A stretch of DNA of 45,777 nucleotides from Candidatus Doudnabacteria bacterium (GCA_016199215.1 JACQHB010000005.1:1-45777), one strand, 5' to 3'; shown: positions 1,333 to 21,423, counted from the stretch's first letter. Numbers and translations: made by a program. The notes: generated by a model from the letters alone, not told the origin.

Positions 1333-1370
1333 TGTACAACTTACTGCTCGATCGAGCAATGTTTTGTACA
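1333..1370. repeat. Palindrome family A, copy 1 (TGTACAA-N5-TGCTCGATCGAGCA-N5-TTGTACA, 38 bp)
   Basis: tgtacaa cttac tgctcgatcgagca atgtt ttgtaca. Confidence 0.95.
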
Positions 1371-1379
1371 AGCCAAAAC

Positions 1380-2075
1380 CTAAATAATTTTTTTCCTAAA
1401 AACCACATTCCATTGCCCAAGTTCTGTCGAACCATCTGGTTTGACTTTTTCGTCTACGGGACTCCCAACCAAGTCAAAACCGTTTTCGTCAGCAAGCTTC
1501 TGGATCTCTTCCAACGAAAAACGATGAACAATGACACTTGCCCCGCTTTCGTCCTTCTCTCTAAGCCAAGTTTCTTTTTCACCAGGCAATTCAACCGCTC
1601 CTTCTTGTGTCAAATTAGTTATAGAATTGACTCTAAAAAAGAAGAGGCCGCCGGGTTTTAAAATTCTAGCGGCTTCGCGGAACGCTTCAGCCCTCGATTC
1701 TTTTCTCCCGTTGTGCAGGGCTTGGATCGCTACGGCAGTATCAAAACTGCCATCAGCGAAAGGCAATTTTCTAAAATCAGCCTGAACTACATCCGCGTTA
1801 GGAAGCTGTTTTTTTATCTGTTCCAAGCCAACTTTTGAAGCATCAATGCCTGTTACTTGATAGCCCAGTTCAGCAAGAGGAACTAAATGCCTGCCGCCGC
1901 CTGTGCCAATATCCAAAATCTTTGGGCCAATCTCTTCTCGAAATTTTTCAACAAACTCCAAAAGCCTGGGCTCCGGAGATTTATCTTCTGACCATCCCTG
2001 TTCATGCCTAAAATCCCAACGCTTAATCACATTAGTTAATTCGTTGTCGGGAATATATTTAGGGTATTCTGACAT
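1380..2075 (-). CDS. Class I SAM-dependent methyltransferase
   Basis: ILDIGTGGG motif I, VTGIDAS, ADFRKLPFADGSFD, ILKPGGLF. Confidence 0.9.
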   Translation of the reverse strand: MSEYPKYIPDNELTNVIKRWDFRHEQGWSEDKSPEPRLLEFVEKFREEIGPKILDIGTGGGRHLVPLAELGYQVTGIDASKVGLEQIKKQLPNADVVQADFRKLPFADGSFDTAVAIQALHNGRKESRAEAFREAARILKPGGLFFFRVNSITNLTQEGAVELPGEKETWLREKDESGASVIVHRFSLEEIQKLADENGFDLVGSPVDEKVKPDGSTELGQWNVVFRKKII

Positions 2076-2093
2076 AATGATTTCCGGCTAACA

Positions 2094-2131
2094 TGTCCAA
2101 CTTCCTGCTCGATCGAGCGATGTTTTGTACA
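2094..2131. repeat. Palindrome family A, copy 2
   Basis: tgtccaa cttcc tgctcgatcgagcg atgtt ttgtaca. Confidence 0.92.
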
Positions 2132-2164
2132 ATAAGTTAAACCTGCCTATTACAAGGGATGTTT

Positions 2165-3040
2165 TTATATCTCTGGATAGCCGAGGATAGGAATTTCATA
2201 ATCACCATATCGCCATACGCGTTGGCTTTCGGCCGGAGCGGATATAAAAGTGTTGTCGATTGACGCAGCGCTTGATTCGGGGCTAATATAAACGCCATCG
2301 CCGCAATTTGTTATGGTGTTATTTTTAATAATCTGTGAGCCAGCGATAGACGCTATGCCGGTATGGCAATCGTCTATAATATTGCCCGCGACTTCTTGGC
2401 TGCCTTGGGATTTAAGATCAATTCCTTCGTGCCCCGCGTCAGATAAATGATTGTTTATTATTTTTATATTTGAATTGGCCGAGGATATAGCTCCCCACAG
2501 GGCATGTCTGGATATGGTATTTTGGATAACACTGTTCGGCTGTTTTCCCGTAGGATTAAGACCGTTGCGAGTATATTCAACAATAACGTTATCAATAATA
2601 CTTCCATCACCTCGAAAAATAATTGCTTCCCAATCGGCTAAATCTGGTTTTTGCGCCGCTGATGTAAAGGTGATCGGCTGGGTTTGAGTCCCTTTGGCAA
2701 TTAATTTTCTTAAGATAAAAAGGCTTGAATGGGTGGTTGAATATGATTTAAGCCGCGTTGGATCCTTGTCATTAAAGCCGTCCGGAGGCACTTCATCGCC
2801 CCAATGGCGGTCATCACCGATAGAGAACTTAATTGTTGTCCCAGACAAGACAGTAAGATTGCCAAAAATTTGAACGTCCCCGGTGACATCAATAGTACCG
2901 CTCCAAATCTGGTTGCCGATAAACCGCCCGCTTACGGAAGTATTAGATTTCTGCGTTGTCGAAAGAAATTTATAGACAATAATAACAAGTATGAGAGTTA
3001 TAATTACCGCTAGAATATATAAGATCTTTTTCCAGTTCAT
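2165..3040 (-). CDS. Membrane-anchored right-handed beta-helix (NosD/pectin-lyase-like) protein; likely start MNWKKILY at 3040, not 3331
   Basis: N-terminal TM (ILYILAVIITLILVIIVY), GTTIKF, PITFTS, repeated I.NN.I...GI units. Confidence 0.7.
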   Translation of the reverse strand: MNWKKILYILAVIITLILVIIVYKFLSTTQKSNTSVSGRFIGNQIWSGTIDVTGDVQIFGNLTVLSGTTIKFSIGDDRHWGDEVPPDGFNDKDPTRLKSYSTTHSSLFILRKLIAKGTQTQPITFTSAAQKPDLADWEAIIFRGDGSIIDNVIVEYTRNGLNPTGKQPNSVIQNTISRHALWGAISSANSNIKIINNHLSDAGHEGIDLKSQGSQEVAGNIIDDCHTGIASIAGSQIIKNNTITNCGDGVYISPESSAASIDNTFISAPAESQRVWRYGDYEIPILGYPEI

Positions 3041-3062
3041 AACAAAATTCTTTATTGGCTGG

Positions 3063-3331
3063 CGTGACCTGACGGTCATCGAACGGTGACCGCGGCGAAG
3101 GGTCAGCGGGAGAATCGGGAGATTCTCGCCGAGCGAACAGAGCGTCAAACGGCGGTCGCAGCGCGTAGCTGACGATCGCGCCCTTGTCCACTTTGAGAAC
3201 ACGATTCGCAGCAGCTGAGAGCGCCGCGCCAGGTCGAGTTGGTCGTACAGCGCGTAGATGTTTGGCGCATACCGTAAAATAGCCAGACCTAGCACACCCG
3301 AGCCGCCGAGCAAGAGAATCTTAGAACCCAT
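3063..3331 (-). pseudogene. Truncated NAD-binding (RmlD/epimerase-like) gene start within the foreign insert
   Basis: MGSKILLLGGSGVLG Rossmann GxxGxxG and 'QLDL', then loss of recognisable similarity. Confidence 0.4.
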
Positions 3332-3905
3332 AGAACCGCCGATACCGAATCTTTGCCCAGATAATGAAAGGCCACAAGTAGAATCTTTCCCCTACTCTAT
3401 ACGCAACGTTGTGTTTCCGATGGTATAGACAATAATTACGCAAATAGATCAGTACGCCGTGAACTCTCCTCTTCAATACCTCGGTACCCATCCGTGACAC
3501 CTGTTCGACAGTAATCCTGCCGTCCTCAACGATGTAGTAGTCCGCGGCAGTCGCACGAACCGAGTAGTCGACGTCGTCGAACCAGTACGGCTCGAACATT
3601 AAGTCTATACCTCCAATACGGTTCCACGCCTCACGGCGATAAATCGACGACCCTCCGTTGGCGTACGAAACCCGCCGCACGCTCCCAGTATTGCTCGACC
3701 CTGGTGAGAATGTTATTGCAAACAGTTTAGGGTCTTCGAACAGTCGCAAGGATTGCTCGAATCCTGAGACCTCGATATCAGAATTCAGGAGCATCACCAG
3801 ATCCGCGCGAGATGTGCGCATAGCCTCCTGCCGGCGACGCAGAAAGTGGGGTTCCAAATTTCCAATCTTACAAATATCGAATGTCATATACATTTCATAA
3901 GTCAC
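3321..3905 (-). CDS. GT2 glycosyltransferase, probably N-terminally truncated
   Basis: LVMLLNSDIEV and IGGIDLMFEPYWFDDVDYSVR; canonical first beta-strand absent. Confidence 0.65.
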   Translation of the reverse strand: MTYEMYMTFDICKIGNLEPHFLRRRQEAMRTSRADLVMLLNSDIEVSGFEQSLRLFEDPKLFAITFSPGSSNTGSVRRVSYANGGSSIYRREAWNRIGGIDLMFEPYWFDDVDYSVRATAADYYIVEDGRITVEQVSRMGTEVLKRRVHGVLIYLRNYCLYHRKHNVAYRVGERFYLWPFIIWAKIRYRRFYGF

Positions 3906-3918
3906 GGGTTAGAAAAAA

Positions 3919-4218
3919 TTAATAAACTCCATTGATGATGGCACCGCTGGTGACCGCTTGCAGGCTATTATAGATGGGGAACGAGCCGTCGGAAGTGATA
4001 GCGGTGATAATTCTGTGCGCATGGCAGTAGTCAGGCGTCAGGGCGCTTTGCTCAGTGTTCCAGAAGTATTTAACATGGCCGTGGAGTGTGTCTTTCACCG
4101 AGGAGAAAAAAGGCACGGCCGTACCGTACCACCATTCTGAATACTCCCAGTTATGGAGTCTCAACAGATCTAGCTTGGCTTGAAAGAAGTCAGCGTCAAG
4201 TCGCATCGCTAAATCCAT
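3919..4218 (-). CDS. Hypothetical protein or gene fragment in the foreign insert
   Basis: 99-aa ORF co-oriented with the GT2; no recognised motif. Confidence 0.35.
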   Translation of the reverse strand: MDLAMRLDADFFQAKLDLLRLHNWEYSEWWYGTAVPFFSSVKDTLHGHVKYFWNTEQSALTPDYCHAHRIITAITSDGSFPIYNSLQAVTSGAIINGVY

Positions 4219-4269
4219 CAGACGCTTGCGTCAGGATCGGCGACAGGTCGTGTTCGAGAATCGCCGTTA

Positions 4270-4344
4270 TGGCTGGGGAGGAAGGATTCGAACCTTCGAA
4301 TGGTGGATTCAGAGTCCACTGCCTTACCGCTTGGCTACTCCCCA
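4270..4344 (-). tRNA. tRNA-Gln (anticodon CTG), CCA encoded
   Basis: Minus strand TGGGGAGTAGCCAAGCGGTAAGGCAGTGGACT-CTG-AATCCACCATTCGAAGGTTCGAATCCTTCCTCCCCAGCCA; 75 nt cloverleaf with GGTTCGAATCC T-arm. Confidence 0.97.
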
Positions 4345-4677
4345 ATGTTTAATTCACAAAAAATTCTTTTAAGCTCTCGCCTGCCCGAACGAGATTTAAA
4401 ATATTTTTCTCTGAATCTAGCGCTCGTCAAATCGTCAAAGCTCTCAGTATATATTAGCTTAAGAGGTCTCCTATTTCTAGTTGATATATTTTTACCCGAG
4501 TTATGCTCCCCTAAACGTCTTGCTAAATTATCTGTTGAACCACAGTAGGTTCGCTTGTCCTTTTCGCTTAAAAGCAAATAAACGTAATACATAAATGTGC
4601 CTTATCCGCCTCGGCTCGACTCACAAAAGCGCTTATCACGAGCCGAGTCGAGACGGGCCGCTTGGCTACTCCCCAAT
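4327..4677. repeat. 20-bp direct repeat CCGCTTGGCTACTCCCCAAT (4327-4346 and 4658-4677) duplicating the tRNA-Gln 5' end
   Basis: Exact match read directly in both positions. Confidence 0.95.
4335..4592 (-). CDS. Small GIY-YIG nuclease (YhbQ/UPF0213-like)
   Basis: YYVYLL...TYCGST.NL.RRL.EHN.G...T..RRP.KLIYTE.F.....AR.RE.YFK. Confidence 0.9.
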   Translation of the reverse strand: MYYVYLLLSEKDKRTYCGSTDNLARRLGEHNSGKNISTRNRRPLKLIYTESFDDLTSARFREKYFKSRSGRRELKRIFCELNIGE

Positions 4678-4684
4678 ATGATTT

Positions 4685-4713
4685 ATTCTACAATTTTTTA
4701 TGATAATTTTCAA
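4685..4713 (-). promoter_or_regulatory. sigma70-type promoter for the GIY-YIG/tRNA-Gln unit
   Basis: TTGAAA-N17-TAGAAT on the minus strand; start site falls just before the upstream tRNA fragment. Confidence 0.75.
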
Positions 4714-4726
4714 TTAAATGAACGAG

Positions 4727-4767
4727 AAGAGGCCGAGCGTCAAGTGTGAACGCTTGGCCTCTTTTTT
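4727..4767. terminator. Intrinsic terminator-like hairpin
   Basis: aagaggccgagcgt / acgcttggcctctt stem followed by T-run. Confidence 0.7.
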
Positions 4768-4771
4768 GTTG

Positions 4772-5119
4772 TCAGATCGCCTTGGCTGGCGCGCGCTGCC
4801 TCGGCTCAATCCAATCTCGCCATACGAGAACGCGGCGAGACCAGTAAACCCAATCCGGTTGCCCAGGGTAGGTCACCAACCTTTCGCCGTCTATCAGATC
4901 AACCATGATTCCGGCAAGCATATAGCCCTTATCGAGCCCGAACGAAAGCCTGGTGCAACCGCAGAAGTTCACGGGCGGTCTTGTCACGCGATACCAGGTC
5001 AGGTTCGAAAGCCGCCAGACCAAGAACAGACGGCTTCCTTCAAATGTCGCCAGCAGGCTCAAGCCGGCAAAGGACACGCAACTGATGCATACGATCACGA
5101 TTGTCTTTCTGATCGACAC
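4772..5119 (-). CDS. Orphan protein with N-terminal hydrophobic segment
   Basis: GTG start with GGAGGG SD, own TTGACC-N17-TAAACT promoter and downstream hairpin. Confidence 0.55.
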   Translation of the reverse strand: MSIRKTIVIVCISCVSFAGLSLLATFEGSRLFLVWRLSNLTWYRVTRPPVNFCGCTRLSFGLDKGYMLAGIMVDLIDGERLVTYPGQPDWVYWSRRVLVWRDWIEPRQRAPAKAI

Positions 5120-5209
5120 GATTCCCTCCGTTTGACGTTGGCAGATTGCTTAAGTTTAACCAATCTGACTGCTTGGGTCAAAGCAGTATTGTTTTGATAT
5201 AATACGGCT

Positions 5210-6751
5210 ATGTCCAGTTCAAAAATTAAATGGTTTTTCCTGGTTCTGCTGCTTGTCTGGCTGGGAGTATTTTTTTCCCAAAAAATCAACCTTACAACCG
5301 CTGATTTGGGCAGGCATATTAAAAATGGCGAGATTGCTTACCAATCTCTTTTAAATTCTGACTATTCGGAGTTTAAAAAGATTTTAGAGACAAATTATTA
5401 TTCTTACACCAATCCTGATTTCCCTGTTTTCAACCACCATTGGGGGTCGGGTCTTGTTTTCTACTCACTCCACCAACTCGGCGGATTTACCCTGCTTTCA
5501 ATATTCGGGCTTCTGACCACGCTGAGCTCTTTCCTTTTAATATTCGATGTATCAAGAAAACTCGCCGGCTTCTGGCCGGCTTGGATTTCGGCTGTTTTCC
5601 TTATCCCCCTAATCGGCGAGCGGCAGGAGATAAGGCCGGAGATGTTCAGCTACCTTTTTACCGCGGCCTTTCTTTGGATTCTTTCGGAGCACAAAACCAA
5701 CCCCAAAAGAAAATATTTGCTTTATTTCCTTCCCCCTCTCTTGCTTCTCTGGGCCAACCTTCATATTTATTTTTTTCTCGGTTTTCTTTTGATTGGAATT
5801 TACGCGATTATGGCATTGACCAAGCGGCCTCTTTTTCTTACCGCCGCAGGCGGGCTTGTCCTGTCGCTTGCCAATCCGTTTGGCTATAAGGCGCTTGCCT
5901 ACCCTCTCCAAATTTTCCAAAACTATGGATATACAATTGTCGAAAACAAATCAGTATGGTTTCTGACAAATTTCGGCTTTAGCAATCCCAATCTGACTTT
6001 GATTAAAATTATTACTGCTGTTTTTTTAATTATGCTTGTCTTGGCAATCCGTAAAAGAAAATCCTATATTGATCACAGCCCCGAATTCTTGGCGATTGCC
6101 GCCATCTTCCTGGTTATGGCCTGGCTTGCTTTCCGGAATTTTTCCTTGTTCGGATTTTTCGCCCTGCCATTTTTAAGCGCGGGGACCGGTAATTTTCTTG
6201 CCCCAAAATTCTTAAAGTTTGAACCTGAAGAAAAATATTTGTCTTTGGCCGGAATAGGCGTTGCTACCATCATTCTTATCTACATTTATTCATACCGTTT
6301 GGCGAATTTCGGGTTTGGGCTGGTGGCGCAGGCGGATTCATCCGCGGATTTTTTCAAGTCGCAAGACGTCAAAGGCCCCATCTTTAATAATTACGATATC
6401 GGAAGCTTTTTAATTTACCATCTTCCAAACCAACAAAAAGTCTTCGTGGACAATCGTCCCGAAGCTTATCCTGCCGAATTCTTTGAAAAAACTTATATCC
6501 CTATGCAGGAAAAAGATGAAATTTGGAAGCAGCAAGCGGATAAATATGGTTTCAACTCCATCTACTTTGCAATCAACGACCTTACTAACTGGGGGCAAAA
6601 TTTTCTGACTAGCCGCGTCAAAGACCCAAACTGGGTTGCGGTTTATGCTGATTCATTCTCAATCATCTTTGTCAAAAGGAAAGAAGAAAACAAACAGCTG
6701 ATAGAAAAATTCGAAATTCCCAAGAACAACTTTAACATTATCCAGCCTTGA
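5210..6751 (+). CDS. Multi-pass membrane protein, probable GT-C-fold glycosyltransferase
   Basis: DLGRHIKNG loop, RPE and WANLH motifs, many TM helices, soluble C-terminal VFVDNRPEAYP domain. Confidence 0.6.
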   Translation: MSSSKIKWFFLVLLLVWLGVFFSQKINLTTADLGRHIKNGEIAYQSLLNSDYSEFKKILETNYYSYTNPDFPVFNHHWGSGLVFYSLHQLGGFTLLSIFGLLTTLSSFLLIFDVSRKLAGFWPAWISAVFLIPLIGERQEIRPEMFSYLFTAAFLWILSEHKTNPKRKYLLYFLPPLLLLWANLHIYFFLGFLLIGIYAIMALTKRPLFLTAAGGLVLSLANPFGYKALAYPLQIFQNYGYTIVENKSVWFLTNFGFSNPNLTLIKIITAVFLIMLVLAIRKRKSYIDHSPEFLAIAAIFLVMAWLAFRNFSLFGFFALPFLSAGTGNFLAPKFLKFEPEEKYLSLAGIGVATIILIYIYSYRLANFGFGLVAQADSSADFFKSQDVKGPIFNNYDIGSFLIYHLPNQQKVFVDNRPEAYPAEFFEKTYIPMQEKDEIWKQQADKYGFNSIYFAINDLTNWGQNFLTSRVKDPNWVAVYADSFSIIFVKRKEENKQLIEKFEIPKNNFNIIQP

Positions 6752-6776
6752 AAAACCCAAGCATTTGGGTTATAAT
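6748..6776 (+). promoter_or_regulatory. sigma70 promoter of hppA with palindromic spacer
   Basis: TTGAAA-aacccaagcatttgggt-TATAAT (17-nt spacer). Confidence 0.8.
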
Positions 6777-6802
6777 TGGCTGGTAATTCTTAATCCTCAT
6801 TT

Positions 6803-10410: not shown

Positions 10411-10413
10411 TAA

Positions 10414-12159
10414 TTAAAATTGTATCTTATCCCCCGGGCTCAATGTCCCAGTTTTGTCCTTCTCGTCAGGCTGCTCCACCTTCTGTATCGGCTTTGGAGG
10501 CTGGGGCATAATGGGTTTCTCCTGCTTTGGGGGGTCAGCAGGCTTTGGGTCTGGAAACGCTTTGGTGATCTGTTCTGCCGTTTTTTTGGCGTTTTCGTTA
10601 AACTTTTGGTCGGAAAGCTTGCTTACTGTTTGCCAAACAGGGTTTTCTTTTGGCTTGTCCTGGCTTTTCTTTTCATGTCCGTAGTTCGCATGGTGTTCCT
10701 GACCGTGCCGCTGCGCTCCCCTGTCCGTTCGCGGCTCAAGCGGGGCTGTCTGGCGTATTGTTTGGGAAGGCCCTGCAGTCGCTCTTTCCTGATATCGCAA
10801 ATTTTCCTGCATATCTTCCTGCTCTACCGCCGAACTTTCAATCTCGGCCGCGGCAGTGTGGAATTCCGCCCCCATCCATTTGTTGATTTTTTCCTCAACA
10901 CTTGCCCGGTTGTTGGCATATCTTTCCCTCGAAACTTTTATTACTTTTTCCTCGTTTCCCGTGGTAACAGAGATCGGGGGCAACGTTGTCGCTGAAAAGG
11001 GGCTGGAAGACACTCCATTGATCATCAGCTTCAAGTAAATCTGGTATTTGGCCAAGTTAAGCAAATCGTTTGGGGTATAAGTAGGCTCGAACTCGGTTTC
11101 CAAAAACTCGGCGTCATCAGCCCCGACCCTGAATATGATCAAAGTGCCAACGTTGCCGAAAATCGCGTCCCGAACAACCGTATTCTTTTCGCGGACCAGC
11201 TGGCCTATGTATTGGTGGGCCACGATCAGGTTCAGCCGATATTTTCTTGCCTCGGACAAGATATTGGCAAAAGACTCCGTGGCAAAATTCTGGAACTCGT
11301 CCACATAGAGATAAAAATCCTTGCGATCTGCTTCCGGTATATCAACACGACTCATCGCGGCCAGCTGCAGCTTGGTAATCAGCATGGCCCCCAACAATCC
11401 TGAATTGTCTTCGCCGATCCGTCCCTTGGACAAGTTGATCAAAAAAATCTTCCGGTTGTCCATAATATCGCGAAGGTCAATCGAACTTTTTGTCTGTCCC
11501 ACTATATTGCGGATGATCGCTGACGACAAAAACTGTCCGACCTTGTTTTGAATCGGGGCGATTGCCTCATTCCGAAACTTGTCGTTGTAATTTGCAAACT
11601 CGTCCACCCAGAACGACTTAACAACAGGGTCCTTAATATTATCCACTATTTTTTTGCGGTAGGTTTTATTCACAAGCATTCTGGCCATTCCCATCATGGT
11701 ATTGCCAGGCGAATCAAGAAGCGCCAGGATTGTGTTTCCAAGAATATATTCCATTCTTGCCGACCAAACCCCGGCCCAAATTTTGGTAAACACGCCCATT
11801 AGGCCGGAAGCAACCAAATGCTTATATTGGGGATCAACCGATTCCAGCGGATTAAACGCGATAGGATAGTCAACGTCGGCAGGGTTGAAATAAACCACGT
11901 CGTTGATCCGGTTTGCGGGAATATAAGATAGAACTTTTTCAACTGAATCCCCGTGCGGGTCCACAAATGCAACTCCATGCCCGTCCTGAATATCCTGGAT
12001 CACCATATTTTCAATCAATGTCGTTTTGCCCATCCCGGTTTTCCCCATGATATACATATGCCTTCTGCGGTCATCTCTGCGAATGCCAAAAGGCACCTCT
12101 CTGTTGCGGAAGTTGGTTTTGGCAAACAAGGTTATGTCATTGTCTTGTGCTTGATCCAT
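10414..12159 (-). CDS. VirD4/TraG/HerA-like (DUF87) ATPase, CPR-type coupling-protein homolog
   Basis: Walker A GKTGMGKT, Walker B LYVDEFQNF, SEARKYRLNLIVAHQY; low-complexity C-tail. Confidence 0.88.
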   Translation of the reverse strand: MDQAQDNDITLFAKTNFRNREVPFGIRRDDRRRHMYIMGKTGMGKTTLIENMVIQDIQDGHGVAFVDPHGDSVEKVLSYIPANRINDVVYFNPADVDYPIAFNPLESVDPQYKHLVASGLMGVFTKIWAGVWSARMEYILGNTILALLDSPGNTMMGMARMLVNKTYRKKIVDNIKDPVVKSFWVDEFANYNDKFRNEAIAPIQNKVGQFLSSAIIRNIVGQTKSSIDLRDIMDNRKIFLINLSKGRIGEDNSGLLGAMLITKLQLAAMSRVDIPEADRKDFYLYVDEFQNFATESFANILSEARKYRLNLIVAHQYIGQLVREKNTVVRDAIFGNVGTLIIFRVGADDAEFLETEFEPTYTPNDLLNLAKYQIYLKLMINGVSSSPFSATTLPPISVTTGNEEKVIKVSRERYANNRASVEEKINKWMGAEFHTAAAEIESSAVEQEDMQENLRYQERATAGPSQTIRQTAPLEPRTDRGAQRHGQEHHANYGHEKKSQDKPKENPVWQTVSKLSDQKFNENAKKTAEQITKAFPDPKPADPPKQEKPIMPQPPKPIQKVEQPDEKDKTGTLSPGDKIQF

Positions 12160-12244: not shown

Positions 12245-13555
12245 TTATCCCACTGGCAAATCGGGAGGAGGCGCGGACTTGACTGTCGTGACCCGCTCAA
12301 CTTGCGAAACCCGGACATTCGGCGCCTGCGGGAAATGATAAATAGTCGCCAATTCTTCCGTGTTAAAGTAAACATCGCCGCTGCCTTTCCAGAAACTCCT
12401 GCTGGTAAAAGCATGCCAGAAGTGCCTTTTGCGGGTCAAAATATTTTTCTGCAAATACGGTTTCTCCAATTGTTCGGAAAGTTTATACGCTTTGTCAGTC
12501 CATGTGTGCTTCATATCCGGCTTTGGTCCGTTCAACGCAACGTCGTCAAAATTCCTGACCGCCCCGATAATTTCCGGAAGGCGCAACCCTTTGTTAAATT
12601 TGTCCTTTGGCGCCATATAGAAAAGCCTGAATTTGGCTTCAAAATAAATTTTGGACAAAGCATGCTCAATGGAAGCGATAACTTGCTTTTCGCCCTCTGT
12701 CTTATGCAGCATCTGGCTTGGCGGCTCGTCTTTTTTTTGCTCTTTTTGAGGTTCTGCGGGGCCTGAAAAAATTGAAACAATTCCTTCCAACACATTTCCG
12801 GGCAAGTCCAAAAATATTTTGTCAAACAAATTCGATCCCGACTTAAGCGGGGCCCCTTTCAATTTATCAAGCAGGAGTTTTTTCGCAATCTTCCACTTGT
12901 CGTCGATGGGCCGGCAGACAATCTGGTAAACCATCAACTCATACGGCTGGAGATTTGACAAGACTTCAATAACATTGGCCAAAGGGTCAATGAATGTTTT
13001 TTGCTCGGGATGCTCGAAAATGCCGTAAGTCCGGATCGGGTAAGCATTGTCTTTTTTCTTCAAAAGCTGGGTCCCCCAAAAATCGAAATCTACCTCCTCA
13101 GGGAAATACTCCTTAGGCATATTTTTTAGATAATCTTCCACCTCGTTAATTTCCGCTTTCGGGTATTGAGCAAAAATCGCGCTTTCCAAAAGACTTTTAT
13201 ATTTATCGGGAATTTTGAAGATATATGAAACCTTGCCGCCAAAACTGACCAGTTCGGCCGAGAACCACATCAGAACTTTGCCATTGAATTTTTCGCCCCA
13301 AGTGAAATTTTGGTGAATCGCGTGAAGCGCGGCAAAGACCTGCTCCATTGCCAAAGGCGATCGTTCATTCAATTCCTCGACCCTTACTTCAAGGAAAATC
13401 CAATTAAAAGTTGCGATATATTTATTCTGGTTTTGGTTCCGGTGCAGCCAAAACAGCATATAAATCAGCACCCATAAAACAAAAAGCCAGCCAAACCAGT
13501 TGACCAAAACTATATTAAAGTATTGCCAAATTTCGCTAAACGTTTGCAGAATCAT
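12245..13555 (-). CDS. Conserved membrane-anchored partner of the VirD4-like ATPase
   Basis: N-terminal TM, 'ESAIFAQYPKAEINEVEDY', 'PIRTY..FE', 'NTEELATIYHFP' recognised as the CPR family upstream of this ATPase. Confidence 0.65.
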   Translation of the reverse strand: MILQTFSEIWQYFNIVLVNWFGWLFVLWVLIYMLFWLHRNQNQNKYIATFNWIFLEVRVEELNERSPLAMEQVFAALHAIHQNFTWGEKFNGKVLMWFSAELVSFGGKVSYIFKIPDKYKSLLESAIFAQYPKAEINEVEDYLKNMPKEYFPEEVDFDFWGTQLLKKKDNAYPIRTYGIFEHPEQKTFIDPLANVIEVLSNLQPYELMVYQIVCRPIDDKWKIAKKLLLDKLKGAPLKSGSNLFDKIFLDLPGNVLEGIVSIFSGPAEPQKEQKKDEPPSQMLHKTEGEKQVIASIEHALSKIYFEAKFRLFYMAPKDKFNKGLRLPEIIGAVRNFDDVALNGPKPDMKHTWTDKAYKLSEQLEKPYLQKNILTRKRHFWHAFTSRSFWKGSGDVYFNTEELATIYHFPQAPNVRVSQVERVTTVKSAPPPDLPVG

Positions 13556-14648
13556 TTGCCAAAGTGAATTTATCCTTATCGACTTTTTGGAAATATTTCT
13601 TGTTCGAAAGGCCCACCAAAATTGTGTTTCTTTTTACCTGTCGCTTCTTTAAAACCTGGTTCACGATCTCGTCTCTCGTCATTGGCCGGCCGAAGGACTT
13701 GATTATATCAGCGATTACGTCAGCAACCACTCCCTTTTTATAACCCCATTCCGAGAGCGCGTAAATTCCCCTCCCGATTAAGACAAACCGCTCGTCCTTA
13801 ATAAGTTCATTATGCACTGTCTCCTGATAAGCCACGCGGTCATCGAACTTGCTTTCATTGATCAGGTTGGTAATCGCCGAATAATGCTCCGGCTTGCCGT
13901 GGTGCTTAAGCACCAGGTATGCCTTGTCTCCTACGTCGCGAGGCTTGATTTCCGTCCAGTCGCCAAGACCCACCTCGTTAAACGGATTGACTTGAATTGA
14001 TTTAGCCAAGTTCAAATAAGTCTTAAGCACCTTATCCGCAAGCTCTGTTGAGTTCTGCTTGTAAAAATCCGTCTGCTTGATTTTTTCAAAAAGCTGGTCC
14101 TGAGGCATCGCGGATCCGGTTTGCTTGAGGATGCCGACAAATTGAGTCACAGCCTCGTCCAGTTTGGAAAAAACAAATCCCACAATATTCCAGGCTTCTT
14201 TATATTCGGAAGTTTCCCGCTGTTTGGTAAACTGGTCTCCGAGGCAAAGCAAAAATTTCACGGCCTGCCGCTCATCGCGGCTGTTTTTACCGGGAAGCAT
14301 CATGCCGATTAATTCATCTTCGGAAATTATGCTTCCGTGCTCAAAGATCGTGTCAAAAACCAACTGCAGAGCCTCGGAAAGCTCCGGCAGCTTTTTCTTT
14401 TTGATCAGATTAAGGGAGTCTTTTTCTATCTGGCGCACGCGTTCTCTGGTCAGATTATATTTCTTCCCGATTGCCTCAAGGGTCTCAATATTCTGGCCAT
14501 TCAAACCGAACCTCGCGCAGAGTATTTCCTTGTCGCGTTCTTTCAGAAGCGACAAAACATTTTGCACCAAAGGGATTGGTTCAAAATTGGTAAGGCTTGA
14601 TTGGGTTTGTGATCCGATAATCCTATCTAAAATGTTACCGTCTGGCAT
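13536..14648 (-). CDS. Sigma-70 region 4 HTH fused to C-terminal winged HTH (RNAP delta/HARE-HTH-like)
   Basis: RFGLNG...TLEAIGKKYNLTRERVRQIE; C-term HYSAIT.LIN...TVHNELIKDERFVLIGRGIYAL.EWG. Confidence 0.8.
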   Translation of the reverse strand: MPDGNILDRIIGSQTQSSLTNFEPIPLVQNVLSLLKERDKEILCARFGLNGQNIETLEAIGKKYNLTRERVRQIEKDSLNLIKKKKLPELSEALQLVFDTIFEHGSIISEDELIGMMLPGKNSRDERQAVKFLLCLGDQFTKQRETSEYKEAWNIVGFVFSKLDEAVTQFVGILKQTGSAMPQDQLFEKIKQTDFYKQNSTELADKVLKTYLNLAKSIQVNPFNEVGLGDWTEIKPRDVGDKAYLVLKHHGKPEHYSAITNLINESKFDDRVAYQETVHNELIKDERFVLIGRGIYALSEWGYKKGVVADVIADIIKSFGRPMTRDEIVNQVLKKRQVKRNTILVGLSNKKYFQKVDKDKFTLANDSANV

Positions 14649-14661
14649 ATTTTTTCTTACA

Positions 14662-14697: not shown

Positions 14698-14726
14698 AGA
14701 TTGAAAAAATATGGCATAATTATTTT

Positions 14727-14939: not shown

Positions 14940-14944
14940 ACAGC

Positions 14945-14977
14945 AAAAAAAGCCCCGGATTAACCGGGGCTTTTTTT
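14945..14977. terminator. Bidirectional intrinsic terminator
   Basis: A7-gccccgg-attaa-ccggggc-T7. Confidence 0.92.
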
Positions 14978-14980
14978 GCT

Positions 14981-15877
14981 TTAGGCTCTGCGCCGCAAAT
15001 CCCATCTATGCCAGACATAAAGCAGAGGGCTTGCGATAAAAATCGATGAATAAGTCCCTGCCCCGATTCCAATCAACAAGGCGAGGACAAAATATCTGAT
15101 TGTTTCCCCACCGAACAGCAGAAGCGCCAACAGGACGAATATCACGGTCAGCGAAGTATTAATCGACCTGACCAGAGTCTGATTTACGCTGTCGTTTATC
15201 ACCTGCCCCAAATCATATCCGCCGCGGGTTTTTAGGTTTTCGCGTATCCGGTCAAAGACTACAATCGTATCGTGCACAGAAAACCCCAACACTGTCAAAA
15301 GAGCGGTTACAAACAAACTGTCAATCTGGACATCGAAAAATTTTCCAAGCAGGGAAAAAACGCCGACCACAATCAAGAGATCGTGAAGAAGAGCGGCTAT
15401 GGCGGAAATCCCGAATTTCCAGGAAGACACGGGCTTGGAAACTTTTCTGAAAGCGTACGCGATATAAAGCACGATTCCCAATGAAACCAGAAGCAGCTGC
15501 CATGCCGCATTCCGTCGAAGTTCTTTGCCAATCACGGGACCGATGGATGTAAATTGCTCTTCGGTAACGGGTCCGAACTTATCGTTCAAAATTTTTACCA
15601 GCTGGTCATGCCGCTCTTTTTCCATAGGCGGAGTCCTGATAATTACCGACTTCTCGGAGGCAGACTGTAGTGTCGCCTCAAATCCCGCGGAAGAAAGCTC
15701 TGCCCCAACCGCCTCCTGCGCCGGAAGGGCTTTTTCAAATTTGATTTGGCTCAATGTTCCCCCGCTAAAATCTATCCCCGTCTTGAGGCCAAAGGTGATC
15801 AGGGAAATAATCCCGATAAGCATGATTATCCCCGAAACAACAAACCAAAATTTATAATTCTTGATAATGTTAAGCAT
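14981..15877 (-). CDS. secF: Protein translocase subunit SecF
   Basis: GIDFSGG, IGPVIGKEL, LGFSVHDTIVVFDRIRENL, RSINTS, GTYSSIFIA. Confidence 0.97.
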   Translation of the reverse strand: MLNIIKNYKFWFVVSGIIMLIGIISLITFGLKTGIDFSGGTLSQIKFEKALPAQEAVGAELSSAGFEATLQSASEKSVIIRTPPMEKERHDQLVKILNDKFGPVTEEQFTSIGPVIGKELRRNAAWQLLLVSLGIVLYIAYAFRKVSKPVSSWKFGISAIAALLHDLLIVVGVFSLLGKFFDVQIDSLFVTALLTVLGFSVHDTIVVFDRIRENLKTRGGYDLGQVINDSVNQTLVRSINTSLTVIFVLLALLLFGGETIRYFVLALLIGIGAGTYSSIFIASPLLYVWHRWDLRRRA

Positions 15878-17216: not shown

Positions 17217-17287
17217 TAAATTTTCTTGAAGATGATTTACTCCGGATATTATAAGGGAAAATTGCTTAAAACGCAATATTAAGAAAG

Positions 17288-18364
17288 TTAAAAAAAGTTA
17301 TGCATTGGCCAGGTAAATGACTCGTAAATCTTATCAAGCAGGCGGCGTCTATTCCAGTCTTTGGCAATTATTTCCCTGCTCTCCGACAAGTCTTGCAAAA
17401 AATGCTTAAAAAGTTCGTTGTTAAACTCGGGGTTTGAGCTGACGATATTCCCTTCGTAATTATAACGAAAGCTTAAATTGTCCAGATTGGTGCTGCCAAC
17501 CGTCCCCCACAAATTGTCGACCACGCCTGTTTTGGCATGCAGGAAGCGATCCGGGCGGTACCGAAAGATCCTAATCCCCGCCTTCAATGCAAGCCCTATA
17601 TAAGAAGCGGAGGCAACATCCAGAATTTTGTGATCGGATTTCCCCGGAAGCAGCAATCTTACGTCAACTTTCCTTTTCGCGGCTGAAAGAAGTTTTTGAA
17701 AGAAGAACAAGTCAGGGACAAAGTAAGGCGTAGTCAGAAAAATAAAATCTTTGGCGGACTTAATCGCTGCCATAAAGGACTTACGGATAAATCTGTTTGC
17801 CTGATAGGGAGAATTGATCAAAAAACTGAATTCATCAGCAGGGTAAATTATTTTCTTAAACCTGAAAAATTTTTTATTAGTCTTGGCAGCAAGCCACATC
17901 TGATTAAAAGCATCTTTCATTTGCTCTACTACCGGACCGACAATTCTGACATGTGTTTCCCTCCAGCTTGTCATATGTTTCTTTATCCCCGCGCTTCCCG
18001 TATATCCGATACTTGAATCAATAACCGTGATTTTCCTGTGATCGCGCCAGAACCAAGAAGTAAAATTATAAAGCCGCCAGGGGCTGATCGGGTTGTAAAA
18101 AACGACCTCAATTCCCTTTTTTTCAAGCTCTCGGCTAAAGCCGGAAGTGATAAATCCCGCGCTTCCCGACGCGTCGCAGAGAAATCGCACCCGAACTCCT
18201 TCAGCGGCCTTGTCCAAAGCTGCCTCAATAAACCTGAAACCTACATCGTCCAGGGCAAAAATATATTGTTCAATATCAATTGAAGCTCGGGCTTGGCGCA
18301 TATCCGCAAGCATATCTGCCCAAAACAGGTCCGCTTCGGTGTAAAATTTCCAGTTGGTTTCCAT
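17288..18364 (-). CDS. cls: Cardiolipin synthase / phospholipase D family
   Basis: Two HKD motifs (HRKITVID, HAKTGVVD), GSTNLD..S.RYNYE. Confidence 0.88.
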   Translation of the reverse strand: METNWKFYTEADLFWADMLADMRQARASIDIEQYIFALDDVGFRFIEAALDKAAEGVRVRFLCDASGSAGFITSGFSRELEKKGIEVVFYNPISPWRLYNFTSWFWRDHRKITVIDSSIGYTGSAGIKKHMTSWRETHVRIVGPVVEQMKDAFNQMWLAAKTNKKFFRFKKIIYPADEFSFLINSPYQANRFIRKSFMAAIKSAKDFIFLTTPYFVPDLFFFQKLLSAAKRKVDVRLLLPGKSDHKILDVASASYIGLALKAGIRIFRYRPDRFLHAKTGVVDNLWGTVGSTNLDNLSFRYNYEGNIVSSNPEFNNELFKHFLQDLSESREIIAKDWNRRRLLDKIYESFTWPMHNFF

Positions 18365-18365
18365 T

Positions 18366-19124
18366 TTATAGGTCAAAACCAAGTTTATTAAATACTTCTT
18401 TTACCTGCCGGGCAAGTTCATCGATATCTTTGGCTTGCTGAGCTTCTTTGCCGAATATCCGGAAATGATAAACCGGCAAATAATCCGGCCCCTCGATAAA
18501 TATTCTATCTTCATACAGCAAAAAATCAAGTTCCTCGGAGGTTAGCTTGTTGCCGTATCGTTCTTTATAAGTTTCCTCATCTTGCAAAGACATTCTCTGC
18601 CCGCTTGCGTCGGAAAAAAGAGGAACGTCTTTTGATCTCGCTATCCCCCATGCTTTTTCAGCGGACTTGATTGCGGATCGTGGAAACCCGAGCAAAAACC
18701 CTCTCTTACTATGCCATTTTGGATCCTCTTCCCCACTGGGGCGAACATACAGATTATTAGAATTGATAAACTCTAAAATATTTTCACCTTTATCCCATCC
18801 AACATCACTGGCTAATTCTGGTTCTTCCATAACTCTTTTTTCCACCGCGCCAGGATTAATAATCATTCCGCCTGCAACTTGCAAATCAATACCTGATTTT
18901 CCCAAGGTTTCGGCAAGCGAAACAGGATCAACCCCCCTGCCTTCGATTTCCAACGCGGGCTTAACTCCTGCAAGCAACCCTATCAACCCCCCTCGATCTG
19001 TCGGGGAGAGTTCGGGAAGCGCGAATTCTTTTTGGCCATGGATAATGTCCTGGATCATTTCCCTTACTTCCCCGGCAGAAAAATCTCTTTTGTCTCCATC
19101 GGATCCCGTTTCAGAAAATCCCAT
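18366..19124 (-). CDS. Hypothetical protein
   Basis: 252-aa ORF tightly packed in the operon; no recognised motif. Confidence 0.7.
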   Translation of the reverse strand: MGFSETGSDGDKRDFSAGEVREMIQDIIHGQKEFALPELSPTDRGGLIGLLAGVKPALEIEGRGVDPVSLAETLGKSGIDLQVAGGMIINPGAVEKRVMEEPELASDVGWDKGENILEFINSNNLYVRPSGEEDPKWHSKRGFLLGFPRSAIKSAEKAWGIARSKDVPLFSDASGQRMSLQDEETYKERYGNKLTSEELDFLLYEDRIFIEGPDYLPVYHFRIFGKEAQQAKDIDELARQVKEVFNKLGFDL

Positions 19125-19125
19125 A

Positions 19126-19638
19126 TTATTTTCGTCCTTTGCTTCCTTTAATAGTTACAGCGATTTTACGCGGAGCGGTGCTCGCGGCTTTGTCCACCAA
19201 ATCGGAACTGGATTGGATCTTGCCGCCCCTGCCGATGTTAAAAACCATCCTGATTCCAAGTTTCCGGCAAGTTTTAATATCTTGATGCAGGGACGAGGAG
19301 GGGTGAACCGCGTCTTTTTTGTTCCTGTCTCCGCCGTTGGCAAATATGTCCGGCTTAAGCCTGGCGAGCGCCTCGGAAACGCTCATGTCTTGCGGGTCCT
19401 TTGGGTGTCTGGTGACAATCACCATATCAACCCAGCGGATCGCCTCCAAAACTTCCTTCCGCTCAACCACTGACATAAAATTGTATTTCTTTTTTTTCTT
19501 AAGCCAATTATCGTTGTTTAAAATTACAACCAGCTGATCGCCCAAGGCCCGGGCTTCTTTAAAAAGTCGAATATGCCCCGGATGTATGGGATCAAATCCC
19601 CCGCTTACGGCCACCACGACTTTTTTATTATCATTCAT
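19126..19638 (-). CDS. Cytidylyl/adenylyltransferase family (TagD/RfaE-like)
   Basis: GGFDPIHPGH (HxGH), ANGGDR, SSS motif. Confidence 0.88.
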   Translation of the reverse strand: MNDNKKVVVAVSGGFDPIHPGHIRLFKEARALGDQLVVILNNDNWLKKKKKYNFMSVVERKEVLEAIRWVDMVIVTRHPKDPQDMSVSEALARLKPDIFANGGDRNKKDAVHPSSSLHQDIKTCRKLGIRMVFNIGRGGKIQSSSDLVDKAASTAPRKIAVTIKGSKGRK

Positions 19639-20083
19639 TGTGATCAGTTTGATGAAAATTAATATTCTTCTCTATGAATGTTAATGACTCCAAGCTGTCT
19701 CTGGTTATATTTTCAGGAAGATTGTTAACATCGAACCACCCCAGTTCTGAACAAAGCCGAGGTTCTTTAATCTCTAGTTCTCTTTCCCAGCGGTGAATTT
19801 CAAAATATATATGCAAACGCGAATGATCACTCCTAAGCACGCTTCTTACGTGGACCAGCTTCGCCTCTCTCGGATCAATTTTTATTCCAAGCTCTTCTAA
19901 ACCTTCGCGCTTAAGCGCGTCCAAAACGAGCTCACCCTGATCCACGTGGCCCCCAAACAAATGAAATTTTCCATCCGCCCAGCCAGTGTTTTGCCTTTTG
20001 CCAAGCAATACCTTGCCGTCCTTTTTTAAAACCAAATGTACAGCAACAACAATTTTAAACCGATCTTTCGGGTCAATGCTCAT
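19631..20083 (-). CDS. NUDIX hydrolase
   Basis: GGHVDQGE...DALKREGLEELG Nudix box. Confidence 0.9.
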   Translation of the reverse strand: MSIDPKDRFKIVVAVHLVLKKDGKVLLGKRQNTGWADGKFHLFGGHVDQGELVLDALKREGLEELGIKIDPREAKLVHVRSVLRSDHSRLHIYFEIHRWERELEIKEPRLCSELGWFDVNNLPENITRDSLESLTFIEKNINFHQTDHNE

Positions 20084-20145
20084 GGTACTTCCTCAATTAA
20101 TTTTTTCGCCAGATCCTCTAGCAAACAATCTAATATAATTTTCAT
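20080..20145 (-). pseudogene. Internally deleted maf remnant (MKIILDCLLEDLAKKLIEEVP*)
   Basis: Matches both the start (MKIVL) and end (DLTKKLIEEA) of the intact maf; its TGA overlaps the NUDIX ATG (ATGA). Confidence 0.8.
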
Positions 20146-20168
20146 AGCTTATTTTGGCATGCCAGCGA

Positions 20169-20226
20169 CAAAAGGTCAAAAAACTACTTGTCCAATGTTG
20201 TGCTCGATCGAGCAATGTTTTGTACA
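20169..20226. repeat. 58-bp direct repeat, copy 1 (contains palindrome A copy 3 at 20189-20226)
   Basis: Identical to 20829-20886, offset 660 bp. Confidence 0.97.
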
Positions 20227-20227
20227 C

Positions 20228-20797
20228 TTATCCCACCGCTTCTTCGATTAATTTTTTCGTCAAGTCAACTGGGAGACCCGCGACACTTTCAATTGTTCCT
20301 TCCAGGCGATCAATAAACTTTGAAAAAGGTTCCTGTTCGGCGGCGAAACTTCCGGCATGCTCGAACACTTTACCGCTCTCCACAAATTGTTCGATGTCCT
20401 CTTTTCGAAAAGGCTTAAAATAAATTGTTACCACATCAACTCCTTCGACAATTTTGCCTGTTTTAATGTTTGTCACGACAACCGCAGCCACTGTCTGTAC
20501 TGGCTTATCTCTAAAACCCAATGCGATCCGGTAGGCTTCTTCTTTCGATTCCGGTTTTTCCAGAATTTCACCATCAAAAACTACCACCAAATCAGAGGTT
20601 ATTAGAATCGAATCAGAATCAATACTTGGAGTCAATGCCACTGCTTTCGCTCTGGCTAAAGTAAGAGTTAGTTCCTTAGGATCCCTACATCTTATTGATT
20701 TCTCATCAATATCAGCAGTAATCACTTCAAAGTCAAAGCCCATATCTTTTAAAATTTTCCTCCGCCTTGCCGAACCTGATCCTAACACAATTTTCAT
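20228..20797 (-). CDS. maf: Maf family nucleotide pyrophosphatase
   Basis: IVLGSGSARRRKIL, IDEKSI, ARAKA, TSDLVV, KPES.EEA, AG. Confidence 0.93.
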   Translation of the reverse strand: MKIVLGSGSARRRKILKDMGFDFEVITADIDEKSIRCRDPKELTLTLARAKAVALTPSIDSDSILITSDLVVVFDGEILEKPESKEEAYRIALGFRDKPVQTVAAVVVTNIKTGKIVEGVDVVTIYFKPFRKEDIEQFVESGKVFEHAGSFAAEQEPFSKFIDRLEGTIESVAGLPVDLTKKLIEEAVG

Positions 20798-20828
20798 AAT
20801 CGTTGAAGTTATTCTCTCACCAAATAAT

Positions 20829-20886
20829 CAAAAGGTCAAAAAACTACTTGTCCAATGTTGTGCTCGATCGAGCAATGTTTTGTACA
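20829..20886. repeat. 58-bp direct repeat, copy 2 (contains palindrome A copy 4 at 20849-20886)
   Basis: Identical to 20169-20226; encodes the last residues and stop of the PaaX-like ORF. Confidence 0.97.
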
Positions 20887-21377
20887 TGCTCGAGTCGACC
20901 GGAAAAAACCTTGACGTCATTCATCAATTTGAGTTCTTTTATCAAATCAGCGACATCATTTGAAATCTTAAAAGGGCTTATAAAAGCGCTTTTTTGAAAT
21001 TGAGTGTAACCATTTCTAACCAAAAAGCGGCGGAAAGAATCTCTTGCCTTATGTTTTTCTTCAGGAACGTCAAATAATACGACGGTAGACAACCCGTCTT
21101 TCCGTAAAACTTTCTTAACAGTACTCTTTCTTATTGTTTTAGCCTTTTCTGTTAATATATATGTACTTGGATATTTTTTTCGATCTTTTTTCACTAATCC
21201 TAACTTTACAAATTTTCTCAAACGGTAATAATACGTTTGCCGGGGAATGGTAAGAACTCTTAACTTGCCGTAAGGCGTAAAAGCAATTTCCTCTGCAAGC
21301 AGCCCCAGCTCCTTGATCATATCCCAAAGTTCCTCGGTCGCAATGCGAAGTATTTGCTTTGATGATAAATTCCTCAT
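20844..21377 (-). CDS. PaaX-like protein: winged HTH plus Cas2-like (PaaX central) domain
   Basis: wHTH (YYYRLRKFVKLGLV...YILTEK) then VVLFDVPEEKHKARDSFRRFL...GYTQFQKSAFISP. Confidence 0.82.
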   Translation of the reverse strand: MRNLSSKQILRIATEELWDMIKELGLLAEEIAFTPYGKLRVLTIPRQTYYYRLRKFVKLGLVKKDRKKYPSTYILTEKAKTIRKSTVKKVLRKDGLSTVVLFDVPEEKHKARDSFRRFLVRNGYTQFQKSAFISPFKISNDVADLIKELKLMNDVKVFSGRLEHVQNIARSSTTLDK

Positions 21378-21385
21378 AATTCAAT

Positions 21386-21423
21386 TGTACAACTTTGTGC
21401 TCGATCGAGCAATGTTTTGTACA
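21386..21423 (-). promoter_or_regulatory. Palindrome family A, copy 5, forming the promoter of the PaaX-like gene
   Basis: Minus strand TTGCTC-N17-TACAAT, 6 nt before the ATG. Confidence 0.8.

Follow-up and report, generated by a model that had tools for sequence, protein, structure and literature searches.

A palindromic site brackets single genes

The stretch of DNA analysed here (the window) is a 45,777-nt contig of Candidatus Doudnabacteria bacterium (GCA_016199215.1 JACQHB010000005.1:1-45777; contig C2 of genome G000, 521 kb in size and 79% complete), in which a 38-bp dyad site recurs around single genes, one of which encodes a small protein with a predicted winged helix–turn–helix (wHTH) and a Cas2-like domain, here called mini-PaaX. 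The site has the form TGTACAA-N5-TGCTCGATCGAGCA-N5-TTGTACA and occurs five times on the plus strand, at 1333, 2094, 20189, 20849 and 21386, each time with zero to two mismatches; in 100 dinucleotide shuffles of the window the pattern gave 0 matches, with 0 expected by chance. The copies delimit three site–gene–site units, which contain a methyltransferase gene, maf and the mini-PaaX gene, respectively (Table 1). The co-oriented copies, the three units and the combination of constant arm spacing with a variable left spacer had all been proposed in an earlier, sequence-only reading, and each holds: the arm–core–arm spacing is invariant in 5/5 copies, and the right spacer is always ATGTT, whereas the left spacers are CTTAC, CTTCC, ATGTT, ATGTT and CTTTG. 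The neighbouring genes all lie on the minus strand and, read in their direction, the site becomes TGTACAAAACAT-TGCTCGATCGAGCA-N5-TTGKACA, with a fixed upstream spacer and a variable downstream one. Its outer arms (TGTACA-N26-TGTACA) surround a 14-bp central palindrome.

Table 1 Genes, dyads and predicted promoters at the dyad loci (window positions unless a contig is named)
Feature	Position	Strand	Description
Dyad after methyltransferase	1333–1370	-	Between convergent genes: 9 nt past the methyltransferase stop, 13 nt past the stop of a family 2 glycosyltransferase (GT2) gene
Class I S-adenosylmethionine (SAM)-dependent methyltransferase	1380–2075	-	Pfam Methyltransf_11/25; rare accessory gene between dyads
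Dyad before methyltransferase	2094–2131	-	33 nt past the stop of a beta-helix gene, 18 nt before the ATG; one core mismatch, right arm TTGGACA
maf relic	20080–20145	-	21-codon open reading frame (ORF) MKIILDCLLEDLAKKLIEEVP*; maf N terminus joined to maf C terminus; repeat D12
Predicted promoter of relic/NUDIX operon	20179–20151	-	TTGACC-17-CAAAAT; -35 in repeat copy B
58-nt repeat copy B	20169–20226	-	Dyad 20189–20226, 1 nt past the maf stop, plus 20 nt with TTGACC
maf (nucleotide pyrophosphatase), intact	20228–20797	-	PF02545, E = 4e-42; TIGR00172
Predicted maf promoter	20839–20811	-	TTGACC-17-GAGAAT; -35 in repeat copy A
58-nt repeat copy A	20829–20886	-	Dyad 20849–20886 (3′ of mini-PaaX, 5′ of maf; right arm TTGGACA) plus 20 nt with TTGACC
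Mini-PaaX gene	20844–21377	-	177 aa; PF20803 PaaX_M; last 13 codons read from the 3′ dyad at 20849
Dyad 5′ of mini-PaaX gene	21386–21423	-	Proposed operator with the gene's promoter; begins 10 nt past the metK stop
Dyad inside tsaD	C8:56055-56092		Full copy, codons 238–251 of TsaD

Genome-wide, the dyad occurs seven times in 521 kb: beyond the window there are a full copy inside tsaD and a variant at C4:34100-34131, which is a 32-nt perfect palindrome with 4-nt spacers and lies between convergent genes. All full copies (6/6) are co-oriented with local transcription, and 5/7 dyads cluster in 20 kb of one contig. With only seven copies, this is a low-copy site and not a swarm of the repetitive extragenic palindromic (REP) kind. 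When the four dyad families found in this genome are taken together, the 13 intergenic dyads lie 1–33 nt past the stop codon of a co-oriented gene, 4/13 of them between convergent genes. The exact 26-nt half-site had no match in metagenome and genome collections, and a looser core-plus-arm pattern matched three metagenome contigs and one relative, G011.

Two explanations for such a repeat were discarded on its distribution. Copies around whole genes are spaced 537–761 bp apart with the genes between them, which rules out a CRISPR array. A HIP1-like or restriction-site origin is ruled out by hexamer counts, as neither CGATCG (124 observed versus 128 expected genome-wide) nor TGTACA (34 versus 31) is over- or under-represented.

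A truncated PaaX-type protein on a Cas2 fold

The PaaX_M family (PF20803, the central, Cas2-like domain of PaaX) matches residues 98–166 of mini-PaaX with 59.3 bits, against a cut-off of 24, and the cas2 model TIGR01573 matches residues 99–152 with 30.0 bits, against a cut-off of 24.5, although this match is partial (model positions 4–58 of 96). The PaaX equivalog model TIGR02277 scores 30.2 bits, far under its cut-off of 264.55. No Pfam match was found to PaaX_C (PF08223) in the protein, which stops at 177 aa, or to the N-terminal winged helix (PF07848) at E ≤ 0.01. In an AlphaFold2 model (predicted local distance difference test (pLDDT) score of 71), the N-terminal half forms a helix, hairpin, helix and wing (pLDDT 55–77) and the C-terminal half has the order beta-alpha-beta-beta-alpha-beta. 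Foldseek searches with this model returned the Cas2 chains 5xvn, 5zyf, 8ia4 and 3exc for the C-terminal half at E = 1e-3 to 4e-3, and aligned both halves to Escherichia coli PaaX (8a39; 136 columns) and to Rv0674. The aspartate of a Cas2-type FD(I/V)P motif and the motif R..FRR...GY..Q.S are invariant in ten homologues (D103, R112, R116, R117, Q128 and S130). Among 5.8 billion proteins the closest homologues share 55–57% identity, and an exact look-up gave no match. As modelled, the product is a winged helix followed by a Cas2-like domain without the PaaX_C ligand domain, PaaX-like in predicted fold and in site geometry and placed outside the PaaX equivalog.

The comparison with PaaX itself is instructive for both protein and site. 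PaaX, a phenylacetyl-CoA-responsive regulator of E. coli and Pseudomonas (PDB 8A39, 3L09), has a winged helix and then a Cas2-like middle domain, the order predicted for mini-PaaX. Its E. coli operator is TGATTC-N27-GAATCA, and it represses its own promoter, Px, by occluding RNA polymerase (PMC9493321). Both this operator and the dyad consist of two 6-bp inverted arms set 26–27 bp apart. Mini-PaaX differs in its length (177 aa versus about 305 aa), in having no PaaX_C and in having no paa genes nearby; its site differs in the additional 14-bp central palindrome, in bracketing genes on both sides, in the presence of several paralogs per genome with their own sites, and in one copy that lies within a coding gene. 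With CRISPR Cas2 the protein shares the ferredoxin fold, the pattern hhhFDhP...R..FRR.L...GY..hQ.S.F with an aspartate at the end of strand 1, and a score above the TIGR01573 cut-off. Unlike CRISPR Cas2, the domain sits behind a predicted winged helix, a Pfam scan of 46 ORFs from the window (not every ORF, but the majority of those with 150 aa or more) found no cas gene, and the window has no CRISPR array. The same scan found no recombinase, integrase or transposase domain, in agreement with the sequence-only reading.

The dyad varies with its protein

To relate the site to the protein, we surveyed 52 loci homologous to mini-PaaX in 40 relatives, comparing the 5′ flank of each gene with its own 3′ flank and calling a bracket when the direct repeat shared by the two exceeded the 99th percentile of shuffled flank pairs. 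By this measure 32/52 loci have a bracket, formed in almost every case by a dyad with a centre of CGATCG, CGGCCG, CGTACG or CATATG, depending on the lineage. In two other genera (G021 and G011), mini-PaaX orthologues with 53–54% identity have the core TGCTCGATCGAGCA itself upstream, its centre 27 nt from the ATG, and a closely related core directly past their stop codons. Within the family, the core TGCTCG-NN-CGAGCA is present in 8/8 genomes with a close mini-PaaX orthologue versus 5/16 without one (Fisher p = 0.002), and is absent from 11/25 genomes of the family. Orthologous regulators have 5′ and 3′ copies with different centres (AT versus TA), a difference kept in two genera.

The genome under study also encodes a second mini-PaaX paralog (C4:65452-65973, minus strand), which has a different dyad, ATACGT-N-GACGATCGTC-N-ACGTAT, on both sides. 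Within this bracket (C4:65408-66005; dyad ATACGTCAAATCGACGATCGTCTAAAACACGTAT), about 45 nt are identical between the two copies, and the right arm of the dyad directly adjoins the start codon. Diverged solo copies of the paralog's dyad stand at C1:30948 and C14:5529, both between convergent genes.

Taken together, these data are strong comparative evidence that the dyad belongs to the wHTH/Cas2-like protein as a candidate cognate pair. Of the interpretation offered in the sequence-only reading, the part that makes the dyad the protein's own DNA site is thus supported by the bracketing, the co-varying dyads, the separate dyad of the paralog and the PaaX-like geometry; the part that makes it a recombination site and a portable docking point for new genes has support of a circumstantial kind only.

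In other genera, the same core also occurs as solo copies, which adjoin or lie in miaA (L018), tRNA-Asp/cca (L015), prmC (L026), uvrB/uvrA (L023) and ruvC (L020). The sites of the present genome touch metK, the SAM methyltransferase gene, maf, the NUDIX gene and tsaD, and those elsewhere touch tRNA-modification, tRNA and DNA-repair genes, which may reflect a theme of nucleotide and tRNA modification or merely the gene content of tiny genomes.

A predicted promoter within the 5′ copy

The dyad upstream of the mini-PaaX gene contains the elements of a promoter: a -35-like TTGCTC (21412–21407) formed by the left half of the core, 17 nt, and a -10-like TACAAT (21389–21384) formed by the right arm, 6 nt ahead of the ATG at 21377. 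Because the start codon follows TACAAT by only 6 nt, a leaderless mRNA is predicted. This arrangement recurs in relatives. Matched 5′ and 3′ dyads are present at 21 loci. A -10-like TANNNT between +14 and +23 is found in 16/21 of their 5′ copies, versus 7/21 of the 3′ copies (p = 0.012) and 4/21 in the reverse orientation (p = 5e-4). Dyad centre and ATG are 26–28 nt apart in 9/21 of these loci, and divergent mini-PaaX loci have a TAnnnT hexamer at +16 to +21. Where the 5′ copy has TACA, 3′ copies often have GACA, as in the three TTGGACA copies of the window. Promoters of the sigma-70 type are in use in this organism, as shown by the rpsL promoter TTGACA-17-TATTAT common to this genome and to G001, its sister species in the same genus.

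In silico, then, a candidate operator overlaps the promoter of its own putative regulator, and, as the bracket layout is both conserved and directional across the family, autorepression is its best reading. A second, unrelated regulator in the window has the same layout. A TrpR/YerC-like gene (42286–42777, minus strand; PF01371, E = 3e-10), located between two glycosyltransferase genes, is bracketed by its own 34-bp palindrome, TTAATACTGCAATACTTTCTCGTATTGCAGTATT, at 42254–42287 and 42804–42837. Each palindrome supplies a TTGCAG -35 element, one to the gene's own apparently leaderless mRNA (17 nt, TATAAT, 7 nt, ATG) and the other to the downstream family 4 glycosyltransferase gene (16 nt, TAGAAT). 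That an unrelated TrpR-like protein shares the bracket suggests that the layout is not a property of a Cas2-fold enzyme; it looks like a general mode of wiring for small regulators in these genomes.

We therefore favour, with a probability of roughly 60%, a model in which mini-PaaX has the 38-bp dyad as its cognate DNA site and forms with it an autoregulated repressor–operator pair. A mini-PaaX dimer would sit on the dyad with its two winged helices contacting the outer arms TGTACA-N26-TGTACA and its pair of Cas2-like domains over the 14-bp central palindrome. With the copy at 21386–21423 occupied, the leaderless promoter of mini-PaaX would be occluded and shut off, in the manner of PaaX at Px. 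In the remaining copies the -10 is spoiled (TTGGACA). These lie past stop codons or ahead of the promoters predicted for maf and the NUDIX operon, and might serve as extra operators or as boundary or roadblock sites through which mini-PaaX would be linked to maf, the NUDIX operon, the methyltransferase gene and tsaD.

Several observations fit this model poorly. TTGCTC matches the -35 consensus at only 3/6 positions, for which reason a generic promoter scanner made no call on the 5′ dyad; its calls were the promoters ahead of maf and the NUDIX operon, both with a TG extension and both with a TTGACC -35 box in the 20-nt extension of the 58-nt repeats. Where a copy stands between convergent genes, as at 1333, at C4:34100 and several times in relatives, it has no gene downstream and falls outside a simple regulon, so that a promoter role for a downstream gene does not apply at 1333; such copies may be roadblocks, insulators or relics of spread. 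A constant 3′ copy that faces a convergent gene in G010, G011 and G022 is left unaccounted for. The conserved aspartate motif of Cas2 would be superfluous in a module that serves only for dimerization and DNA binding. Finally, no mini-PaaX homologue was detected in the 79%-complete assembly of G001, although this species keeps dyads.

A conserved copy within tsaD

The TsaD segment that holds the coding copy of the dyad is four residues longer than its counterpart in 12 other relatives. The tsaD gene of G001 has a dyad in the same position; its arms are unaltered, and its core is changed from GCTCGATCGAGC to GTCCGATCGGAC; the four changed positions, two in each half, are mirror-symmetric, such that the palindrome remains perfect despite altered amino acids. 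Two metagenome contigs whose TsaD is 64–67% identical have the identical core at the same codons. Where three genomes share an amino acid, they also share its codon at 8/10 alignment columns inside the site versus 42/187 elsewhere (p = 3e-4). This constancy at the synonymous level suggests a used site and not a tolerated scar, and argues for selection on the tsaD dyad as DNA.

Rickettsia palindromic elements are in-frame palindromic insertions of 100–150 bp within genes, and lac O2 is an auxiliary operator inside lacZ. The tsaD dyad resembles the former in being translated within a variable surface segment, to which it adds four residues, and the latter in being a would-be operator in a coding region. 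It differs from the Rickettsia elements in its size (38 bp) and in its constancy at synonymous positions across lineages.

Genes between dyads are variable

The sequence-only reading had called for a comparison of the flanked genes among relatives and for a search for empty, single-copy sites. The genes are indeed variable. Homologues of the methyltransferase were found in 2/40 relatives, at 35–40% identity; maf is present in 10/24 relatives; and the mini-PaaX regulator is patchily distributed. In none of the ten is maf flanked by dyads, and no flanking dyads were found at methyltransferase homologues from databases with 46% and 41% identity (database best, 50%). Of an empty single-site allele no example was seen in the relatives compared, among which the G001 contigs break at the locus, and databases hold no closer strain; no target duplication was found either. 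Next to the methyltransferase unit, the GT2 orthologue of G002 has different neighbours and the G001 contig ends inside the tetratricopeptide repeat (TPR) gene. After metK, G001 has about 190 nt and then the start of a NUDIX-like gene, with no mini-PaaX gene, maf or dyad between, and at a second locus rseP abuts proS without the unit formed by the second paralog and its two sites. Solo dyads are placed differently in the two species: those upstream of rpsL and after fmt occur in G000 only.

The maf unit has a more intricate structure. The repeats at 20169–20226 and 20829–20886 are a perfect direct pair of 58 nt that brackets the intact gene, with unrelated leaders. Downstream lies the relic, an in-frame remnant still coupled in translation to the NUDIX gene: its stop codon overlaps the ATG of that gene (ATGA), just as intact maf overlaps the next gene in the relatives G009 and G002. 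The order maf, NUDIX/cytidylyltransferase, two further genes and secDF is ancestral, and is free of sites in relatives. The spacer after metK in G001 gave no alignment with the maf relic. Had a circle integrated at the site, an intact maf between repeats next to a decayed one would be the outcome; as the identity of the repeat pair runs 20 nt past the dyad, gene conversion or RecA-type exchange fits equally well.

Alternatives to a repressor–operator pair

These features raise the question of whether dyads move genes. REP sequences are imperfect palindromes of about 20–40 bp that lie past stop codons and between convergent genes; the gene of their partner is flanked by its own repeats, and copies and positions vary between close relatives. 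The partner, a REP-associated tyrosine transposase (RAYT), is a Y1/HUH enzyme (PF01797) with inverted flanking REPs, which number tens to hundreds. The dyads share the positions past stops and between convergent genes, the repeats around the partner gene and the locations that differ between close relatives, but have a PaaX_M/Cas2-like partner, direct flanking copies, only seven copies in all and a 5′ copy that doubles as a predicted promoter. By analogy, mini-PaaX or a recruited host enzyme could nick or recombine DNA at the dyad, perhaps in hairpin or cruciform form, spreading dyads and moving the genes that they bound (maf, the methyltransferase gene and the mini-PaaX gene itself). Such a system would explain why all three flanked genes are accessory, why G001 lacks both the block after metK and the paralog unit between rseP and proS, why solo dyads differ in location between the two species, and why this genome has seven dyads versus 1–4 in relatives that have any; the repeat-flanked maf beside its decayed resident counterpart, the in-frame dyad in tsaD, the REP-like positions and the conserved Cas2 aspartate in a protein above the cut-off of the Cas2 model would also fit. 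Against this stand the missing empty allele, target duplication and recombinase, the site-free ancestral synteny of maf and the site-free homologues of both maf and the methyltransferase, the exchange processes that fit the 58-nt pair equally, and the predicted promoter in the 5′ copy. The tsaD copy stays in place across lineages, and a TrpR-like regulator with no nuclease fold has the same bracket. Moreover, the AT and TA centres of the 5′ and 3′ copies are stable in two genera, without homogenization or deletion, which indicates that the copies do not recombine often. We consider gene movement of this kind unlikely. No more probable is its specific form, a 'keeper plus repeat' built on the Cas2 fold, in which nicking or recombination at CGATCG under the paired aspartates would seed dyads (in frame within tsaD) and swap genes, with maf and the methyltransferase gene as captured cassettes. 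The likeness to integrons, with co-oriented single-gene units of accessory function separated by imperfect palindromes, has limits: there is no IntI among the scanned ORFs, the sites have no R″/L″–L′/R′ boxes and no GTTRRRY core (attC sites are 57–141 bp), they are held in place across genera, and no empty or rearranged arrays were seen. An integron was rejected because the scanned ORFs include no integrase and the sites no attC boxes; RAYT systems, which the dyads resemble in layout, differ in their protein and copy number. The earlier reading had remarked that the motif resembles neither attC nor REP.

The dyads might instead act in RNA, as transcribed 3′-end stem–loops for termination, stabilization or processing, and their partner protein, if involved, would bind RNA or single-stranded hairpins, like some RNases of the Cas2/VapD fold. 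Every intergenic copy lies 1–33 nt past the stop of a co-oriented gene, all copies follow the direction of transcription, the symmetric change of the core in G001 has the form of compensatory base-pair changes, and a terminator-like score was obtained on the plus strand for the core hairpin and the ATGTTTTGTA that comes after it. However, the 5 + 5-nt spacers are non-complementary in 6/6 full copies and three have a non-wobble arm mismatch; with unpaired spacers the hairpin would be weak, a 5-bp stem and a 7-bp outer stem across a 5 × 5 internal loop. An intrinsic terminator was rejected on account of this 5-bp stem, the unpaired spacers and a T-rich tail that lies on the strand opposite the genes. 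A symmetric stem also does not account for one conserved spacer (AACAT) beside a free one, the conserved centre-to-ATG distance and the directional -10 of the 5′ copies favour a DNA-level promoter role, and the geometry of the arms equals that of a known double-stranded DNA operator; an RNA-level role thus seems quite improbable. Least plausible is that the dyad is an ordinary selfish repeat, similar to REPs or miniature inverted-repeat transposable elements, or a chromosome-organizing site of the parS or matS kind, with no link to the neighbouring protein. It is palindromic and low in copy number, 5/7 copies lie within 20 kb of one contig, and one is in a coding region, as parS can be. This reading is contradicted by the association of gene and site at 32/52 loci with lineage-specific co-variation, by the separate dyads of the two paralogs in this genome, by the unremarkable number of CGATCG hexamers and by the lack of the core in 11/25 genomes of the family.

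Implications and further repeats

Full-text literature searches found no description of a module of mini-PaaX and dyad, and the self-bracketing design seems to be unpublished: a truncated PaaX-type protein on a Cas2 fold would stand between its own palindromes, one of which holds its promoter, with further copies at gene boundaries and in the essential gene tsaD. Almost nothing is known of gene control in the ultra-small bacteria of the candidate phyla radiation (CPR; Patescibacteria). The pair of protein and site lends itself to testing, as the sites are defined to the base, the sister species provides a natural specificity variant and a transcription start is predicted, and it bears on the roles of Cas2-like domains outside CRISPR. 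If dyads did move genes, which we hold to be a minority reading, they would constitute a new route of gene gain in bacteria without classical mobile-element machinery. Even under a conservative interpretation, the rule that a regulator is bracketed by its own operators would aid the annotation of CPR genomes.

Further dyads were noted in the course of the analysis. A third family, with the core TGGCGATCGCCA and arms of the ACATAAA type, is found at C10:18916-18949 and C15:12256-12289, with one copy inside an ORF and no partner gene identified; a looser relative lies in the TPR gene of the window (62–103). In this genome, about 95 additional bases that separate the rpsL promoter from a membrane-protease gene contain a fourth dyad, TATTCAAAATTGACCGATCGGACAAAAGTGAATA (C3:3470-3505); the dyad is missing there in G001, which has a 94%-identical copy at another locus (G001:C19:1757-1787). 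In a relative without detectable mini-PaaX, two TGCTCGGCCGAGCA dyads (arms ATCTTCA/TGAAGAT) surround 1.27 kb (L013; G006:C28:12-1295) that contain an XRE-type HTH gene and an unknown 223-aa gene, and a third copy adjoins tRNA-Trp on another contig.

The window also contains two short repeats with three copies each. The hairpin repeat TGTAGTCAGCCGATTTATCGGCT (AGCCGAT-TT-ATCGGCT; 22486–22508, 41059–41081 and 42061–42083), at least two copies of which stand at gene ends, is unrelated to the dyads, and ATTTCTAACGGGAT(T/C)CAT (34806–34829, 39002–39025 and 45483–45506) ends in CAT, that is, ATG on the minus strand. Between the two clusters of sites in the window lie genes for a homologue of VirD4/TrwB-like coupling ATPases (10414–12159, minus strand) and for a protein with sigma-70 region 4 and a HARE-HTH domain (13536–14648, minus strand).

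At the rseP locus, the following gene encodes prolyl-tRNA synthetase in both species (C4:63807-65279 and G001:C100:353-1639), and a tblastn search with the G000 enzyme gave no match at the G001 locus. The start of the G000 protein, MVKTYEKKGLTKK, resembles the archaeal/eukaryote type and that of the G001 protein, MKQSELFTKTLR, the bacterial type, which suggests that one enzyme was replaced by a non-orthologous one while the locus stayed the same.

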